Shown piece after piece: positions 82 through 8,388 of a stretch of 64,000 nucleotides of DNA. Each line of letters opens with the position of its first letter. Positions within the stretch are counted from its first letter, which is position 1. The translations under genes were made by a program, and so were the position numbers. Under the pieces are notes generated by a model. That model saw only the letters and a program-made list of their open reading frames with translations, searched no databases and was not told the origin of the DNA. Location: assembly GCF_011045215.1 (NCBI RefSeq), contig NZ_CP049201.1, one strand, 5' to 3'. Source of the DNA: Escherichia coli (GTDB taxonomy: Bacteria; Pseudomonadota; Gammaproteobacteria; Enterobacterales; Enterobacteriaceae).

Positions 82-560
82 ACTCTCCAGCTCCTGTATC
101 AATCAGATAATTTCACGACGTCTTCCAGCTTATTGCCATCATCGACGGTCAGGCTCTTACGCAATCCCATCGCGCTGACTGCATGTTCTCGCCGCCTCAG
201 TGCGATTTTGACGGCCTTATCTGCCACCCCATCAAATCAAAAGCCCTCACGTCTTTTTCACGCTCAGCGTGAGAAATACAGCCATTCTGTTGTGTTGCTG
301 CGACATCGTTCAGGGGATGCTATTTATCCCCTGAAACGCGGGCTGTTCCCCCGTCACCTGCGCGCAGAAAAAACGCGTTTTTTTGTGCACGCACGGATCC
401 TTGACGGATCCAGCCGCCACGGGGGCCGGAAGGGCAAAAAGTCGTTCAAAAAAATTGTGCAAATTTGTGCACTATCGTGCAGTGTGCATCGTGCTGTTTT
501 CTGCGCAAAAAACGGATGGTAAATTTGTTCGTAGCAGGGAAATTTTAATGAGCGCAAGAC

Positions 561-1091
561 ATGAAGAAAGATTCATATCCTTATTTGATTTGCATGACTG
601 TTTCAGTGCTAGGGATTATTTTCCTCTTTTACTGGTGGAGGGCAGATATCTACAGGATTACATATCTTAATTCGCGTATATCCAATTATTACATCTTGTG
701 TAGTATGGGTATGTCCTTTTTCTTCTCCTTGTTTCTGGTGAAGAGGGGGGTAGTGAAGCAAAGTGGCTGGAAAGGACTGTCGGAATACCTGAAGGTTTAT
801 GCTGGCTCTTGCATTCTTACAGGGATATTCCTGATTATTCCTCTTATGATGGTGACTTATTTTTTACCAGGAGTAACATCATCATATGTTGCACCGTATG
901 AGTATACATCTGGTAGTTCAAGAAGCTGTTCCGGAGCGTTTGTTGATGATCCCGAACTGCATAAAAATATTCTTATTTGCTATCCGTATGGTAACTATGA
1001 ATATGACAATATTATCTATGTTGAAAAGAAAACTAATGCATTGGGCGTTGTTGTGACGTATGCACAGACTGCACGAGACGATGCTGAATAA
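561..1091 (+). CDS. Hypothetical polytopic membrane protein (about 3 predicted TM helices, soluble C-terminal ~80 aa); AT-rich cargo gene
   Basis: 176-aa ORF with three long hydrophobic segments; strongly AT-rich relative to flanking DNA; no family recognised. Confidence 0.5.
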   Translation: MKKDSYPYLICMTVSVLGIIFLFYWWRADIYRITYLNSRISNYYILCSMGMSFFFSLFLVKRGVVKQSGWKGLSEYLKVYAGSCILTGIFLIIPLMMVTYFLPGVTSSYVAPYEYTSGSSRSCSGAFVDDPELHKNILICYPYGNYEYDNIIYVEKKTNALGVVVTYAQTARDDAE

Positions 1092-1282
1092 GATACTACA
1101 GATATAGTCCACTTTTTTGTTTATTTGTCGGGATAAAAACAAATTACCCCGACTCACCATGTATTAATCTTCCGCTTTAAGTTAGTATTTTAGCTGCGCT
1201 GTCCTGCTATTCAGCAAAGCGGCGTACTTTAATGCGTCCTGTGCTTTCTGGAATTTAAGTGCATAGTCAGTGGCGATTTTTT

Positions 1283-1564
1283 CTAGTTCAGCGATTCGGT
1301 TGTTTTTGGTTTCCAGCCAATCAAGTAGCGCCAATACTTCAGGATCCCGACATCCAACACTGTTACGCGTGATTTTTCATAATGTTCGTCGGCAAGAGTT
1401 CGGCCAATTTTGAAATCTCCATCATCACCATAACCGGAGCAGGCATAAACAACCTGTGCTCCAGATATTCGCTGAATTGACATTTCCTCGCCGCAAATAG
1501 GGCATTTCGGTACTGGCACAGGTGAATAACGTTCACGTAATGCCTGATAGTTGATTTCGCTCAT
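1283..1564 (-). CDS. Small zinc-ribbon protein (CPICG...CSG); probably frameshifted, coding signal continues in another frame to 1185
   Basis: 93-aa ORF with CxxC...C motif; protein-like translation continues in a second frame (DPEVLALLDWLETKNNRIAELEK...) past the stop at 1283. Confidence 0.4.
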   Translation of the reverse strand: MSEINYQALRERYSPVPVPKCPICGEEMSIQRISGAQVVYACSGYGDDGDFKIGRTLADEHYEKSRVTVLDVGILKYWRYLIGWKPKTTESLN

Positions 1565-1627
1565 TAAGTCGTTCTCCTTGTTTATGTTCTGAGGTGGAGA
1601 GCAGGGCGAACTCGCCCTGATGTTGTG

Positions 1628-1939
1628 TTATTCAGGAAATAACGCCCGGATATTTCCGGCCATCTGACTGGTTATCTGTGCGGTTGATACTGGCTGTGAT
1701 GCGGGGCGTTCTGTCCTGGTTTGTGTCACTGATAACGCTTCATCATCAGCCCATGCAGCTAGTCGGTAAGCCTCTGCCGGATTCATTTTCAGAAGTGCCA
1801 GCCCGGCCAGAAAAGCCACACGTTGGCCGCTTTTGCGGGCTTCTGGTGTAAGGCTGTCCAGCCAGGCGCATGCTTCGCCTTCGTTCTTGACGGCGGCGGG
1901 CTTCAGATAGAAACTTATCCGTCTGGTTGGTGTCGTCAT
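1628..1939 (-). CDS. parR: ParR (StbB)-like centromere-binding protein
   Basis: 103 aa from Met at 1939; resembles plasmid R1 ParR (from memory); AAGGAG RBS; starts 4 nt after parM stop. Confidence 0.55.
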   Translation of the reverse strand: MTTPTRRISFYLKPAAVKNEGEACAWLDSLTPEARKSGQRVAFLAGLALLKMNPAEAYRLAAWADDEALSVTQTRTERPASQPVSTAQITSQMAGNIRALFPE

Positions 1940-1943
1940 TGGT

Positions 1944-2903
1944 TTACTCCTTGTCCATTGCGTACAGCCCATTAACCAGAGCAAACTGTGGCACCCCGTC
2001 CGCGATGAAAGTCGCATTAACTCCGCAGGCTTCGCGGATAGCGGGTGCCACAATCTCCGCCCCGCCACCGACAACCATCACCCGCCCGTAACCCGAAAAA
2101 ACCGCCAGCGCGCGGATCACGCGTTGTTTCAGTGTTTCTTCCTTTTCACGAATAACCGCCATCAGGCTGGCGTAATGCGCGTCATTGTGGATGTGTTGGC
2201 GCAACCAGGCTTCATCATGGCGATGTTCGATAATGGTATTGGCGATGTGGTGACTGGTACGCATACCGTTAGCGGCCATCACCGACAGCACGGCACCGGC
2301 CATCAGGGAGACGCCTACGTGTGGATCGCAAAACACCTGGCTGATACCTGCCAGTTGCCCCTGAACCTTTGCCACATCCAGCGTGGTTCCGCCTAAATCC
2401 ACAATCAGCAGGGATTCAAACGGACTCATGTCAGCCAGTGCTTTAAAGCCAGCCGGAATGGATTCAGGCATAACCCGCACGTTACGGATAGTGAATGCTT
2501 CGCCGTTCTGGTACTCCACCGGGCGCATAACGTTCGCTTTTTTGCGGTTGATGTTGGCCATGTCCGGCTGTGCGTTTGTGTCGAAATACTCGCTCAGTGG
2601 CAGGGTGACAACCACATCCACCTCCTGTGGCGTGATGCCTGATTTGACCAGCGTGTGATGAATGGCGATTACATTCACATCGCTGTACTGGTATTGCGTG
2701 TCGGTCGTCTGGACAAAGCGATCGCTGACCGGATCAAAACCATAGCGCACGCCATCAAGCATGTAGTTCGCGGGCTGCATGCCACCGAACGGCGCAGATC
2801 ATTCCGACTTGAAGCTGTTCGGGCTGATGGCGTTGCGGCGTTCGCCATTCTCAGTCCATGCCAGCTTGATGTTGGTGGAGCCGTCGTCGATACAAATTTT
2901 CAT
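1944..2903 (-). pseudogene. parM: ParM (StbA)-like actin-type partition ATPase, interrupted by in-frame TGA at 2799-2801
   Basis: N-terminus MKICIDDGSTNIKLAW...NSFKSE then TGA, then in-frame continuation SAPFGGMQPANYML...; strong similarity to R1 ParM (from memory), where this position is Trp. Confidence 0.75.
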
Positions 2904-2932
2904 GTCGCTTTTCCTTATGTTGATTAATTAAT

Positions 2933-3050
2933 CGTTTACGGGATTCTGAAATCCCGTTTTTGCCTGTTTTGTGTGCGCTTCATATATCGCGGCGCGTTTT
3001 TTGCTCATTTACGGGATTTGTGAATCCCGTTTCTGTCTGTTTTTTGTTTC
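2933..3050. repeat. Two copies (2933-2975, 3006-3050) of a ~45-bp repeat, each with palindrome ACGGGATT-N4-AATCCCGT; candidate parC-like centromere/operator
   Basis: Direct repeat with internal inverted repeat, immediately upstream of the parM start. Confidence 0.6.
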
Positions 3051-4533
3051 CACTGGTCAGGCCACCCCGCAGCAGGTCTGCTTTGCGGCGGGCACGTTCA
3101 GTGGTTTCACTGATTCTCTGTGCGTGCTCTGCGTCGCGGATGGCGCGCAGCATGTCAGAAAGCACGGTAACGGGGGTTTTCATGGTGTTCTGGTCCTGCT
3201 GAAGTGTGGATGCCAGACGTGCGGCGGCTTCGAGGTCTGATGCCCCCAGCTGTTCCAGATAGCTGGCGACCGGGTTATGGCGGATCTCCGTGCTGCTTAC
3301 GCCGTGATTACGGCTCAGGCGCTGCCAGAGCTGCGTGATTCGGCTGTCCGGGCGGGTATCCGGTTTGCGTACAATTTCAAATCCCTGCGGTGCAATGATG
3401 CTGCCGTCAACGTACAGGCTGCCGCCCCGTAACAGGTGCTGCATCTGCTGTTCACCGATATGCATGCCGAGAGATTCGGCAGATTCCCGCCATTCTTTAG
3501 CGAGTAATTCGTGGTTATCAGGCAAAGGCCGCTGCTGTTTGCGGCTCTGTGTCCAGCTCTGCATTTCATCACTGCTGTTTTTTGCCTGTTTGTCACGCAG
3601 CGAACGCATCAGCGCCCGGCGTTCGTGCCGTTTCAGTGAGCGCACCCATTCATCCACATCAACGCCGTCAGGAAGCTGCGGCCACGGTGCTGGCCGTTCT
3701 TCCGGCTGTTCTGTCCCGTTGTTGTCCGTTTCCTGTACACGGGGACAGTTATTGCCACGAGTCCAAGGGGCGGCAGGGCCGCTCTGAAGGTCAAAACCAT
3801 TTTCGCGGGAGCTGTCTTCCGCTTCCGGTTTGCGTCTTACCAGCTTCCAGTTATCCGGATGCGTGCATACGCGGGAAGACTCCCCGATGAGCGGCGACCA
3901 GATCCCGTAAATCTGTACACTCTGCTCACCGTAATCGTTCAGTTCATCTGCGAGGTCGTAGGCGGTGCGAATCAGGTAGTCTTTGCGTGGAACAAGCACG
4001 CCACCCTGTTTTTCAATGTAGGTGGCAAAACACCCGGCATCAGCGGCAGCGAGTACCGCATCCATTGCGTCATCCTTCAGCCGTTGCGGGCCTTCCGGGT
4101 TGCGTGCCATCTGGCTGGCAAGGCGGCGCAGTTCACGCCACACCTGACGGGAGGGGATACCAAAGAACTGGAACTGGCGGACCCGGTGAAGGCGCGCCCA
4201 GCCGATGGCGCGTTCCACGCTCTCGGCCATTGATTTTCCGGTTTCGTGGTCAACGCGTGGCTTGCCCGTTTTCGGGTCGATGCCATCCACGGCGCGGCTG
4301 TCCAGGTTCTTTCCGATGTAGGTGGCGATGTAGCTGGTTGGCGTGCCTTTTGAGCCGTCGACGTACTCCGCCTTAAAACGCGGAGTTATGTCATCGCCCA
4401 GCTCGTGGCGGTCTTCCTGAATGGCAATATCGCAGACGTGGGACACGATGGTTTCAATCTCGTCCGGATGTGCAAAGACCATCATATGCCAGTGCACAGT
4501 GCCGTCATGGTGAGGCTCCAGCGGTGTATTCAC
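2980..4533 (-). pseudogene. HUH-motif rolling-circle replication initiator, P2 gpA-like; apparently 5'-truncated
   Basis: 517-aa ORF begins at GTG right at the motif HHDGTVHWHMMVFAHPDE, preceded by in-frame TGA; upstream 300 bp is coding-like in two other frames. Confidence 0.5.
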
Positions 4534-4686
4534 TCAGCGAGGCACACCCGCCAGCAGTGTGATGCGCCAGCATTGCCGCAAATACGGAGGCCGGGGAGTC
4601 GTAATACGCCAGCAGTGATTCGCCATGCGGTGTCAGGCAGCGCAACGCCAGCCCGTGTGGTGTTAAGTCCACGCGGTAGCAGTCGT

Positions 4687-4836
4687 CTACTGTGAAATAA
4701 AGGGTGAGCGTTGTTCTTTAGCTGCCATTTCATCAATGACGGCTCGCTCTTCGAGGGACAGCCGAAGTGCCAGTCTTGGACCTGTGGCGGTGTTACGCGG
4801 AATGCGTGATCTGGTATCGTGAAGAACTTGTTTCAT
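4687..4836 (-). CDS. Small 49-aa ORF divergent from the XRE gene (possible Cox/excisionase-like or RHH regulator)
   Basis: ATG at 4836 to TAG at 4687; below the 60-aa ORF-track cutoff; position equivalent to cox in a P2-type early region. Confidence 0.3.
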   Translation of the reverse strand: MKQVLHDTRSRIPRNTATGPRLALRLSLEERAVIDEMAAKEQRSPFISQ

Positions 4837-4911: not shown

Positions 4912-5316
4912 ATGAAAAATGATATTGGTCAGCGGTTGCGTGAGGAAAGGGAAAGATTGGGGCTTAGTCAAGTTGCTATGAGCGACATTGGTGGAGTCAA
5001 AAAGCTAACTCAGCTTAGATATGAGAAAGGAGATAGCTTTCCTGATGCTGCGTATTTGGCAGCGCTGTCTCGTTTTGGCCTTGATGTTCAGTATGTTGTG
5101 TTGGGAATTCACTCACCTGAAACTTATAACGATGATGAGCAGGAGTTGATTACTCGCTTTCGAGCAGCTTCGTTAGATGTAAAAAACGCGGTGATCGGGG
5201 CTTTAAAAGGTGCGGGCAGTGAAAAGGAAACTCAGCCATCAGGGCGTGAGTTAAATATTTCTGGTGGTAATAACCGTATCGCTGGTCGTGACTATAACGA
5301 AACTAAGGGTAGGTGA
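4912..5316 (+). CDS. XRE-family helix-turn-helix protein (repressor-like) with C-terminal tail carrying an NNRIAGRDYNE motif
   Basis: N-terminal HTH signature (IGQRLREERERLGLSQVAMSDIGGVKKLTQLRYEKG); low GC. Confidence 0.7.
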   Translation: MKNDIGQRLREERERLGLSQVAMSDIGGVKKLTQLRYEKGDSFPDAAYLAALSRFGLDVQYVVLGIHSPETYNDDEQELITRFRAASLDVKNAVIGALKGAGSEKETQPSGRELNISGGNNRIAGRDYNETKGR

Positions 5317-5331
5317 TAGTAGGGAGGTGAC

Positions 5332-5982
5332 ATGGCCGTCAACTCAAACGGTTCAAACAATCGCGTTGCTGGGCGTGATTTTCACGAAAAGAATATTCAG
5401 ATAGAGCGATATGATGGTTCTCATACCGTCAATATCGCAATCCCTTCGAATAATGATGATGACGCTCGCCCTTTGCTTAAGGCACAGCGTAAGGAGCTAA
5501 ATAGCTTGGTTGCTGCTATTGCAGAAGCTAGCAATACTGAAGCGTTTATTATTTGGCAAAAAGTACATGCGGAGATTGGTGTAGCTGGTATTGATGATAT
5601 GACAATAAATCAATATAAAACAGCGGAGAGTTTTCTGCATGCAATGCTTGAGCGATGTAAAGATCATGATGCCTGTAAGACTCTTGTAAGTTTATTACTA
5701 CGTAACAGTGAAGACTGTGGACTTCGACAAAAACTTCTGCGGTATTGCCATATCAATTTCGGTACAGGACGTTTAAACGATCTTACTCGTTCTCAGTTAC
5801 AGTCTGCATTGTCGTGGTTAGAGCAACAATCGGTATCAAGCCACTCAGAGAATTCGACCTTACCAGAAGTTCGCCTTCGTGCTTCAGAATTAATCCGATT
5901 TTATCCAAAAGAAATAATATTCTTTATCTGCGTAGGGGTTTTGGTAGGCGGAGCCATTTCTAGGATGTTTTTTAATTTGTAA
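5332..5982 (+). CDS. Hypothetical protein, cytoplasmic domain plus single C-terminal transmembrane anchor; N-terminus repeats the NNRVAGRDFHE motif
   Basis: 216 aa; strong RBS AGGGAGGTGA 5 nt upstream; C-terminal hydrophobic segment IIFFICVGVLVGGAI; low GC. Confidence 0.6.
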   Translation: MAVNSNGSNNRVAGRDFHEKNIQIERYDGSHTVNIAIPSNNDDDARPLLKAQRKELNSLVAAIAEASNTEAFIIWQKVHAEIGVAGIDDMTINQYKTAESFLHAMLERCKDHDACKTLVSLLLRNSEDCGLRQKLLRYCHINFGTGRLNDLTRSQLQSALSWLEQQSVSSHSENSTLPEVRLRASELIRFYPKEIIFFICVGVLVGGAISRMFFNL

Positions 5983-6011
5983 TCTTACTTGAGCTAAATT
6001 GAGGCAATGAC

Positions 6012-7570: not shown

Positions 7571-7596
7571 AAACCACCTTCGGGTGGTTTTTTTGT
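7571..7596 (+). terminator. Intrinsic terminator of the leuZ tRNA operon
   Basis: AAACCACC-TTCG-GGTGGTTT stem followed by T-run. Confidence 0.8.
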
Positions 7597-7722
7597 GCCT
7601 GCAACTTGTCGTTACACCCTCCTTAATTTTTAATCACCGGCAAAGCCACTCAAAAAGTATCTCTGATACGGACCGGCATGTAAGATAGGTGCTGGCGAGT
7701 TGAGATCCACAAGGAAAAGCGT

Positions 7723-8388
7723 ATGAAAACGGGACCGTTAAACGAAAGTGAGTTGGAATGGCTGGACGATATTCTGACCAAATACAACACTGACCACGCC
7801 ATCCTTGATGTGGCGGAGCTGGACGGTTTATTGACGGCAGTGTTGAGTTCTCCGCAAGAGATTGAACCGGCACAGTGGCTGGTTGCCGTGTGGGGTGGGG
7901 CTGACTATGTGCCGCGCTGGGCGTCAGAGAAAGAGATGACGCGCTTTATGAACCTGGCTTTTCAACATATGGCCGATACCGCAGAGCGTCTGAACGAATT
8001 CCCGGAGCAGTTTGAGCCGTTATTCGGCTTGCGAGAAGTTGATGGCAGCGAGCTGACGATTGTTGAGGAGTGGTGCTTTGGCTATATGCGGGGCGTGGCA
8101 CTTTCTGACTGGTCAACATTGCCCGATTCGTTAAAACCAGCGCTGGAGGCGATAGCGCTGCACGGTACTGAGGAAAACTTCGAGCGGGTAGAGAAGATGT
8201 CGCCAGAAGCGTTTGAAGAGAGCGTAGATGCCATTCGACTGGCGGCGCTTGATTTACATGCATACTGGATGGCGCATCCGCAGGAAAAAGCTGTTCAGCA
8301 ACCGATCAAAGCAGAAGAGAAACCGGGGCGTAACGATCCTTGTCCGTGCGGCAGTGGTAAGAAATTTAAGCAGTGCTGCCTGCATTAA
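7723..8388 (+). CDS. yecA: UPF0149 protein YecA with C-terminal SEC-C zinc motif
   Basis: 221 aa; C-terminal [13 protein letters not shown]; K-12 synteny. Confidence 0.9.

Follow-up and report, generated by a model that had tools for sequence, protein, structure and literature searches.

A mobile single-gene cassette at the gpQ-gpA hotspot of P2-like prophages encodes a three-helix membrane protein with a predicted periplasmic β domain, a possible superinfection-exclusion factor

What does a small, AT-rich membrane-protein gene do beside the cos site of a P2-like prophage? The question is raised by the gene at positions 561-1091 of the stretch analysed here, 64,000 nucleotides (nt) of Escherichia coli DNA from contig NZ_CP049201.1 (termed the window), which begins at the end of the portal gene (~30) of a P2-like prophage of the P88/Xuanwuvirus type. 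From the letters alone, the original prediction described an orphan gene in AT-rich DNA that converges on a parMR operon and encodes a protein with three hydrophobic helices and a Tyr/Gly-rich C-terminal domain, and it suggested superinfection exclusion or abortive infection. We find a selected gene at a known anti-phage hotspot, with alleles in two types of phage and in decayed prophages, and tentatively favour exclusion at the cell envelope. The original description is for the most part borne out, and its interpretation is plausible.

The open reading frame at 561-1091 is a real gene under strong purifying selection. An in-frame TGA at 549-551 makes the ATG at 561 its earliest usable start, and the product is identical to RefSeq WP_000711113. 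All homologues share the N-terminus MK(K/N)xSYPYL, so that the N-terminal extensions of 12-24 residues annotated in some records are doubtful and probably wrong. Compared with the allele of phage 434 (76% DNA and 79% protein identity), the ratio of nonsynonymous to synonymous substitution rates (dN/dS) is 0.10 for the gene and 0.079 for its C-terminal domain, and the copy in strain 2011C-4251 differs by a single synonymous base. The GC content of the gene is 38.4%, compared to 53% at 1-483, 56% at 1600-4600 and 50% over the whole window; this places it at the 4th percentile among 531-nt stretches and bears out the original description as AT-rich. The ribosome-binding site in front of the gene is weak.

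The gene is located in the cos-adjoining interval between gpQ (portal) and gpA (replication). Its neighbourhood runs from the portal gene through a hairpin (57-81), cos, the gene itself, an Ea22-like remnant, a ParR-like gene and parM to gpA (Table 1), and RefSeq annotation of a near-identical locus (L001) lists portal, membrane-protein gene, Ea22-like remnant, ParR, ParM and replication endonuclease. The gpQ-gpA interval is the position of old and tin in P2, an anti-phage hotspot with 1,650 gene arrangements among 18,150 loci (Rousset et al. 2022, PMC9122126), a context stronger than the variable prophage region from which the original prediction had argued. WP_000711113 appears among the P2 loci in Table S5A of that study, and a homologue of about 55% identity, labelled only '3 TM', ranks fourth in prevalence in its Table S5B, with 470 loci; the 3 TM family is among the commonest cargoes of the hotspot. 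Neither WP_000711113 nor the '3 TM' homologue is in the table of tested systems (Table S2, PMC9122126). Of eight additional P2-hotspot systems cloned in that study, three gave defence. The searchable supplements of two later defence screens contained no homologue. Within the window, no other defence gene was found at the hotspot locus.

Comparison with other prophages defines the gene as a self-contained, single-gene, AT-rich cassette of this hotspot. P88-like phages match the window from 1 to ~484 and then diverge, and many P88-like or P2-like phages lack the gene. The '3 TM' homologue (P0048) is 54-57% identical over its full length (E 4e-53); like two Salmonella alleles (P0037 and P0046), it lies directly 3' of the portal gene, shares its strand and converges on the gpA operon, in P2-like phages that differ elsewhere. 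In total, four allele classes occupy the post-portal site in P2-like prophages of E. coli and Salmonella, with protein identities of 55-99%. Upstream of the gene, phage 434 has a nearly identical copy of a 31-nt block (497-527), and TGgTAAATT is found at 517-525. The pattern TGnTAA(A/T) is kept in five allele classes, 35-40 nt 5' of the start, in upstream DNA that has otherwise diverged, and is a candidate extended -10 promoter.

The cassette is also present in lambdoid phages. A 79%-identical allele resides in phages 434, 2B8 and mEp332 and in lambdoid prophages at the lambda attachment site beside ybhC, where xis and exo flank it and the pL operon runs on the other strand; the copy in phage 434 is CPT_434B_36, a 'putative membrane protein'. 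The window and phage 434 share DNA at 283-345 and 424-1196, which takes in ~125 nt of P88-like cos-flank backbone (to ~484) that is common to all P88-like phages regardless of cargo; a segment of 78 nt (346-423) is missing in the lambdoids. This broken relic of a P2-type cos flank indicates that the cassette moved from a P2-like phage into a lambdoid phage, and 283-1196 is the unit that moved. In the phage 434 locus (L002) the relic lies at 5807-6000, and CPT_434B_35, a small 'putative membrane protein' annotated over it, is probably no gene. The Ea22-like pseudogene of the window is a lambdoid-type remnant within a P2-like hotspot, a further sign of exchange between both phage types. According to the original prediction, a lack of homologues in other mobile elements would have spoken against a phage-related role; many such homologues were found.

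Homologues were detected in 998 of 5426 complete E. coli genomes (18%), all of them chromosomal, with a DNA identity of at least 99% in 76 and of 60-80% in 918. Carriers include O157:H7, O55:H7 and the outbreak-type HUSEC2011, and the allele of the window is found in O103, O45 and O121 strains. The gene is thus no orphan as regards relatives, and solitary only as a single-gene cassette. It is intact in an O157:H7 lambdoid prophage with a frameshifted int and a truncated bet. The prophage of the window is itself defective (cryptic): compared to its intact relative (L001, 13121-18036), two blocks of ~1.4 kb and ~3.4 kb are gone (window ~4520-4706), and with them the 5' portion of gpA and the greater part of the early operon, a loss of ~4.7 kb from the early region. 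In addition, codon 35 of parM is a TGA (W35*), compared to the intact WP_000686553 of strain 2011C-4251. A restart at Met42 would drop the stretch IDDGSTNIK, which we read as the actin-fold phosphate-binding motif, and this prophage has probably lost a working partition system. The orientation of the gene towards parMR is as originally described, but the Ea22-like pseudogene intervenes and parM carries the nonsense codon. The membrane protein is unaltered within this defective prophage. Its integrity in defunct prophages shows that the gene does not depend on a working phage, which argues against a lytic role and for a benefit to the lysogen.

Further searches revealed relatives in many genera and no characterised family. 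Pfam gave no match at E ≤ 10 for the query and none at E ≤ 0.1 for any of 32 aligned members; NCBIfam gave none for the query, and neither database contains an immunity family with sequence similarity to it. No family of PADLOC (PADLOC-DB v2), which presumably contains models of effectors of the cyclic-oligonucleotide-based antiphage signalling system (CBASS), matched at E ≤ 10. PDB sequences were matched neither in single-sequence nor in profile searches, and Foldseek with the structure model described below returned nothing from PDB below E 0.1. The only family match is PHROG 1416 (residues 90-175, E 2.6e-45), whose function is unassigned; PHROG 8515 matched non-significantly (E 0.37). Families of Imm, Sp, SieB, RexB, Cor, Llp and HK97 gp15 should be among the annotated PHROGs, none of which was matched by the query.

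Searched exhaustively with a profile, 1.84 billion cluster representatives yielded just 57 proteins, nearly all of ~170 residues and of like architecture. One match (P0104), a repeat protein of 3074 residues with 11 weak matches to residues 122-161, was dropped as a repeat-summed chance resemblance (CxGxxC...ITYPxG). A search for related loci with a narrower alignment brought up the two known E. coli allele classes and nothing further. Foldseek against AFDB50 identified family members in Escherichia, Pantoea, Mixta, Hafnia, Proteus and Pseudomonas, named 'uncharacterized' or 'transmembrane protein', followed by a weak tail of global matches (E 1e-8 to 1e-6, TM-score 0.55-0.68, 13-20% identity) to membrane-anchored, β-rich proteins of ~190 residues. 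These are uncharacterised, and one is named 'SMODS-associating 2TM beta-strand rich effector'. Overall, the family ranges over E. coli, Salmonella, Enterobacter, Pantoea, Hafnia, Proteus, Providencia and Pseudomonas, and it appears to belong to no described, characterised family, in line with the original prediction, which had recognised none.

Structure prediction, which had been proposed as a check, gave a confident model of three transmembrane helices and a five-stranded domain. AlphaFold2 reached a predicted local distance difference test score (pLDDT) of 74 with nine homologues, and of 92.5, with a predicted template modelling score (pTM) of 0.79, with 32 diverse homologues. In the latter model the helices span residues 6-29, 38-61 and 71-101, of which hydropathy analysis also backs the first and third, so that the three hydrophobic helices foreseen at the outset are confirmed. 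They are followed by a C-terminal β domain (104-171) with five strands between residues 105 and 171, which is a folded domain and not a low-complexity tail. Its claimed richness in Tyr is confirmed (9 of 73 residues, compared to 19 of 176 in the protein), whereas that in Gly is not (5 of 73). Loop 1 holds a three-residue strand (34-36) and is predicted to contribute it to the C-terminal domain, which would be OB-like. The best fold matches in PDB are oligonucleotide/oligosaccharide-binding (OB) folds (RPA, ExoVII, LEF-3 and RNase R) with E values of at least 0.12, which we take as a description of the fold only.

The predicted topology is N-in/C-out, with the N-terminus and the Lys/Arg-rich loop 2 in the cytoplasm and the β domain in the periplasm. 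The numbers of Lys and Arg residues are two in the N-terminus, three in loop 1 and five in loop 2, which by the positive-inside rule points to this orientation; loop 2 is basic in nearly all of the 32-member alignment, and the net charge of the C-terminal domain is -5. As the C-terminal strands are the sole possible pairing partners of strand 34-36, loop 1 and the C-terminal domain should lie on one side of the membrane. All 32 aligned members, whose identity goes down to 24%, share the three transmembrane helices and the Cys...Cys β domain, and the only invariant columns are Cys123, Cys140 and Gly162. The two cysteines flank the hairpin of strands 125-130 and 135-140, and a predicted Cys123-Cys140 disulfide would staple the periplasmic domain; the presence of the pair in every member fits an oxidising compartment. 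A lipoprotein signal was rejected, as Cys11 lacks a proper lipobox and is not conserved.

Among the distant members, one in Hafnia lies between the gluconate dehydrogenase operon and phoPQ, and others lie near GGDEF/EAL and chemotaxis genes. On a contig that is probably from Hafnia (L014), a gene at 7571-7975 directly 3' of a distant member encodes a lipoprotein of 134 residues (lipobox LVGC) that carries a TolA C-terminal domain (PF06519) and belongs to PHROG 5772 of unassigned function. Domain III of TolA serves group A colicins and Ff phages as a hub for import, and a periplasmic decoy of this domain could block the import of colicins or filamentous phages. At three further loci (L007-L009, 1-5510), a member is found beside two large genes with DUF4062, AAA_16 and TPR domains (STAND-type NTPases), to which one variant adds a gene of the metallo-β-lactamase fold similar to Apyc1; this setting looks like an islet of defence and counter-defence.

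Envelope-level superinfection exclusion by a prophage inner-membrane protein is the function we favour, and we give it a little less than an even chance. The prophage would express the small inner-membrane protein in the lysogen from its own promoter, and the three-helix anchor would display the disulfide-stapled β domain in the periplasm. There the domain would bind a conserved component of genome entry, either a host factor of the inner membrane or periplasm, or a conserved element of the incoming phage, in its tail tip or its ejection apparatus. This binding would halt the passage of phage DNA across the inner membrane, and the cell would not be killed. The lack of a sensor, enzyme domain or partner suits a blocker that acts passively better than a suicide system that must be triggered, and the placement on the opposite strand in lambdoid phages, together with the conserved upstream motif, suggests the behaviour of a moron. 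The TolA-domain lipoprotein at the probable Hafnia locus is a second protein related to entry through the envelope, which we count for exclusion.

Several points weigh against this reading. Placement in a hotspot is guilt by association, as hotspots also hold ParMR and Ea22, which are not defence genes, and distant members of the family reside in ordinary chromosomal islets and not in phages. Homology to known exclusion proteins was detected neither by hhalign against P22 SieA nor among the annotated PHROGs, and a scan for consensus sigma-70 promoters found none upstream of the gene. An arms race with phage proteins that evolve fast would not be expected to leave the periplasmic domain so highly conserved, and the topology that places it there is a prediction. 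The literature searched by accession, phage name and topic yielded no experimental work on the family. The strong conservation of the predicted periplasmic domain favours a conserved partner in the host or the import machinery, and fits exclusion as well as a role in lysogenic conversion. More speculatively, and in our view rather doubtful, the family might be a new class of single-protein envelope immunity, in which the OB-like periplasmic domain plugs or masks a conserved step of macromolecule import, of phage genomes and perhaps of colicins or tailocins. If so, its broad protection would explain why the cassette shuttles between myoviruses (P2-like) and siphoviruses (lambdoid) and outlives its prophages in E. 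coli and Salmonella.

Among the alternatives, a lysogenic-conversion factor that is not aimed at phages is a serious but unlikely one. It would alter the physiology of the envelope, and might confer immunity or tolerance to a colicin, tailocin or type VI effector active in the periplasm or inner membrane, or else modulate a host envelope protein in favour of the lysogen, for instance in the gut or in Shiga toxin-producing E. coli. Such a factor would be retained in the decayed O157:H7 prophage and the defective prophage of the window, would account for the members in non-phage islets, and agrees with the conserved periplasmic domain, which suggests a conserved host or toxin partner, and with the TolA C-terminal-domain lipoprotein next to the Hafnia member. 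Moreover, the three-transmembrane, N-in/C-out format is also that of the inner-membrane immunity proteins against pore-forming colicins. However, no toxin gene adjoins the gene in any locus inspected, no similarity to the immunity families of Pfam or NCBIfam was detected, and both phage positions of the gene are sites where anti-phage cargo is concentrated.

This hotspot context is equally compatible with the abortive infection of the original suggestion, in which the protein would oligomerise and permeabilise the inner membrane upon infection, like RexB or the CBASS effector Cap15 (S-2TMβ). In known systems, transmembrane proteins are mostly regarded as suicide effectors (Rousset et al., PMC9122126), and the AFDB50 entry named as a SMODS-associated effector is a weak match of this kind. 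Nevertheless, we consider it improbable: no cyclase, sensor or partner gene was seen in any context inspected, S_2TMBeta was not matched in Pfam at E ≤ 10 nor any family in PADLOC, no Cap15 structure was among the Foldseek matches in PDB, and a β domain that is predicted to be periplasmic, with invariant cysteines, could not bind a cytoplasmic signal. Constitutive, stable carriage in 18% of complete E. coli genomes, dead prophages included, likewise speaks against a toxic effector and, together with the predicted periplasmic domain, favours exclusion over abortive infection. A function in the lytic cycle of the phage itself, such as genome ejection, lysis timing or packaging at the cos side, would suit a gene that adjoins cos and lies on the portal-gene strand in P2-like phages. 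It is nonetheless very improbable, as many P88-like and P2-like phages with the same flanks (homology to ~484) lack the gene, lambdoid phages carry it at a different site on the strand opposite to the early operon, prophages no longer able to replicate keep it intact, and its low GC content marks it as foreign cargo.

Table 1. Positions of the cassette and adjoining features in the 64,000-nt window
Feature	Position	Strand	Remark
DNA shared with phage 434 and other lambdoid prophages	283..1196	+	76% identity; 346-423 missing there
P2-type cos cleavage region	~417..455	unassigned	inferred from ends of linear records
Cassette-specific upstream region	484..560	+	P88-like backbone homology stops at ~484
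Membrane-protein coding sequence	561..1091	+	176 residues, ATG start; product WP_000711113
Stem-loop	1127..1153	unassigned	35 nt 3' of the stop codon; GTCGGGATA...TACCCCGAC
Frameshifted Ea22-like pseudogene	1182..1564	-	convergent with the membrane-protein gene
ParR-like gene	1628..1939	-	hotspot locus, up to gpA
parM	1944..2903	-	W35 stop codon (TGA)
Truncated gpA	from 2980		end of the hotspot locus

The flanks of the cassette show several further features. The stem-loop downstream of the gene is preserved in phage 434 through a compensatory change from G:C to A:T; as a T-run is lacking on either strand, it was rejected as a canonical intrinsic terminator. A 30-nt direct repeat of 73% identity links the hairpin behind the portal gene (60-89) to the one behind the membrane-protein gene (1130-1159). 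Both copies end in CCCCGACTCnCCA and together they flank cos and the cargo gene; the repeat may mark recombination boundaries of the hotspot, or may be due to chance. A sub-threshold Rfam match of gyrA RNA to the portal terminator hairpin was taken as chance. The placement of the cos region follows the linear record of the P88-like phage P884B11, whose first base corresponds to window position ~436. On either side of it, at 362-389 and 497-512, the inverted repeats GCGCAGAAAA / TTTTCTGCGC and TTTTTTGTGCA / TGCGCAAAAAA are ~115-125 nt apart, and a run of GTGCA-containing repeats occupies 451-497; these elements may be packaging signals. In Salmonella P2-like prophages (L019 and L021-L023, ~5100-5890), small co-oriented genes for products of 81, 119 or 123 residues lie between the portal gene and the family member. 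The 119-residue product has weak PHROG matches to phosphoheptose isomerase and polynucleotide kinase. These genes are missing from the other loci, and are therefore probably independent cargo.

The existence of the gene and its abundance at the P2 hotspot have already been published, in a supplementary table (PMC9122126). As far as we found, the predicted structure and topology, the invariant cysteine pair, the range of the family, the transfer from P2-like to lambdoid phages with its cos relic, and the persistence in dead prophages are new. About one in five complete E. coli genomes, those of pathogenic strains included, has a homologue, related alleles occur in Salmonella P2-like prophages, and a sister allele is the fourth commonest cargo at the best-studied prophage defence hotspot. 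If the protein is an exclusion factor, it would be a common single-gene barrier of relevance to phage therapy and to the phage typing of pathogenic E. coli; should it prove inactive against phages, it would stand as a clear example of hotspot cargo that is very abundant and yet not defence.

Among known systems, Cap15 (S-2TMβ, PF18153) is of similar size to the protein and also has N-terminal transmembrane helices followed by a small β-rich domain. However, the protein of the window has three helices and not two, and its β domain has five strands, compared to the barrel of Cap15 that is reportedly eight-stranded, and is predicted to be periplasmic with a conserved disulfide; the Pfam and PADLOC searches gave no match to this family, and the loci inspected contain no cyclase of the cGAS/DncV-like nucleotidyltransferase (CD-NTase, SMODS) type. 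Short NfeD proteins (YbbJ/YuaF type, PF01957), of ~150-175 residues, have three N-terminal transmembrane helices and a C-terminal five-stranded OB fold. The likeness is one of architecture only, as there is no Pfam match, no NfeD chain among the sequence or fold matches in PDB, and no SPFH/stomatin neighbour.

The closest counterparts are relatives of the gene itself. The '3 TM' cargo of the P2 hotspot, which was given as a label without structure or topology (PMC9122126), agrees with the gene in family, in post-portal position and strand, and in being a single-gene cassette; it differs in allele class and in its neighbour, an SSB (single-stranded DNA-binding protein) gene there compared to ParMR and the Ea22-like remnant in the window. 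CPT_434B_36 of phage 434 retains 79% protein identity, and 76% DNA identity from the upstream region of the cassette through to its downstream hairpin, but belongs to a siphovirus, lies at the xis-exo site on the strand opposite to pL next to a broken P2-type cos relic, and is often annotated with an extension of 12-24 residues. Homology to SieA of phage P22 was rejected, with an hhalign probability of 0.2%; the motif FxRYPxEAxxFNK, predicted to be cytoplasmic in SieA, is absent from the protein of the window, and SieA lacks the C-terminal β domain. Nevertheless, SieA is a prophage inner-membrane protein, with 162-164 residues and three predicted transmembrane domains, compared to 176 residues, three predicted helices and a predicted membrane location here. 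As a single gene with its own promoter, whose product alone suffices to block DNA injection, it is the best functional analogue of the mechanism proposed above.

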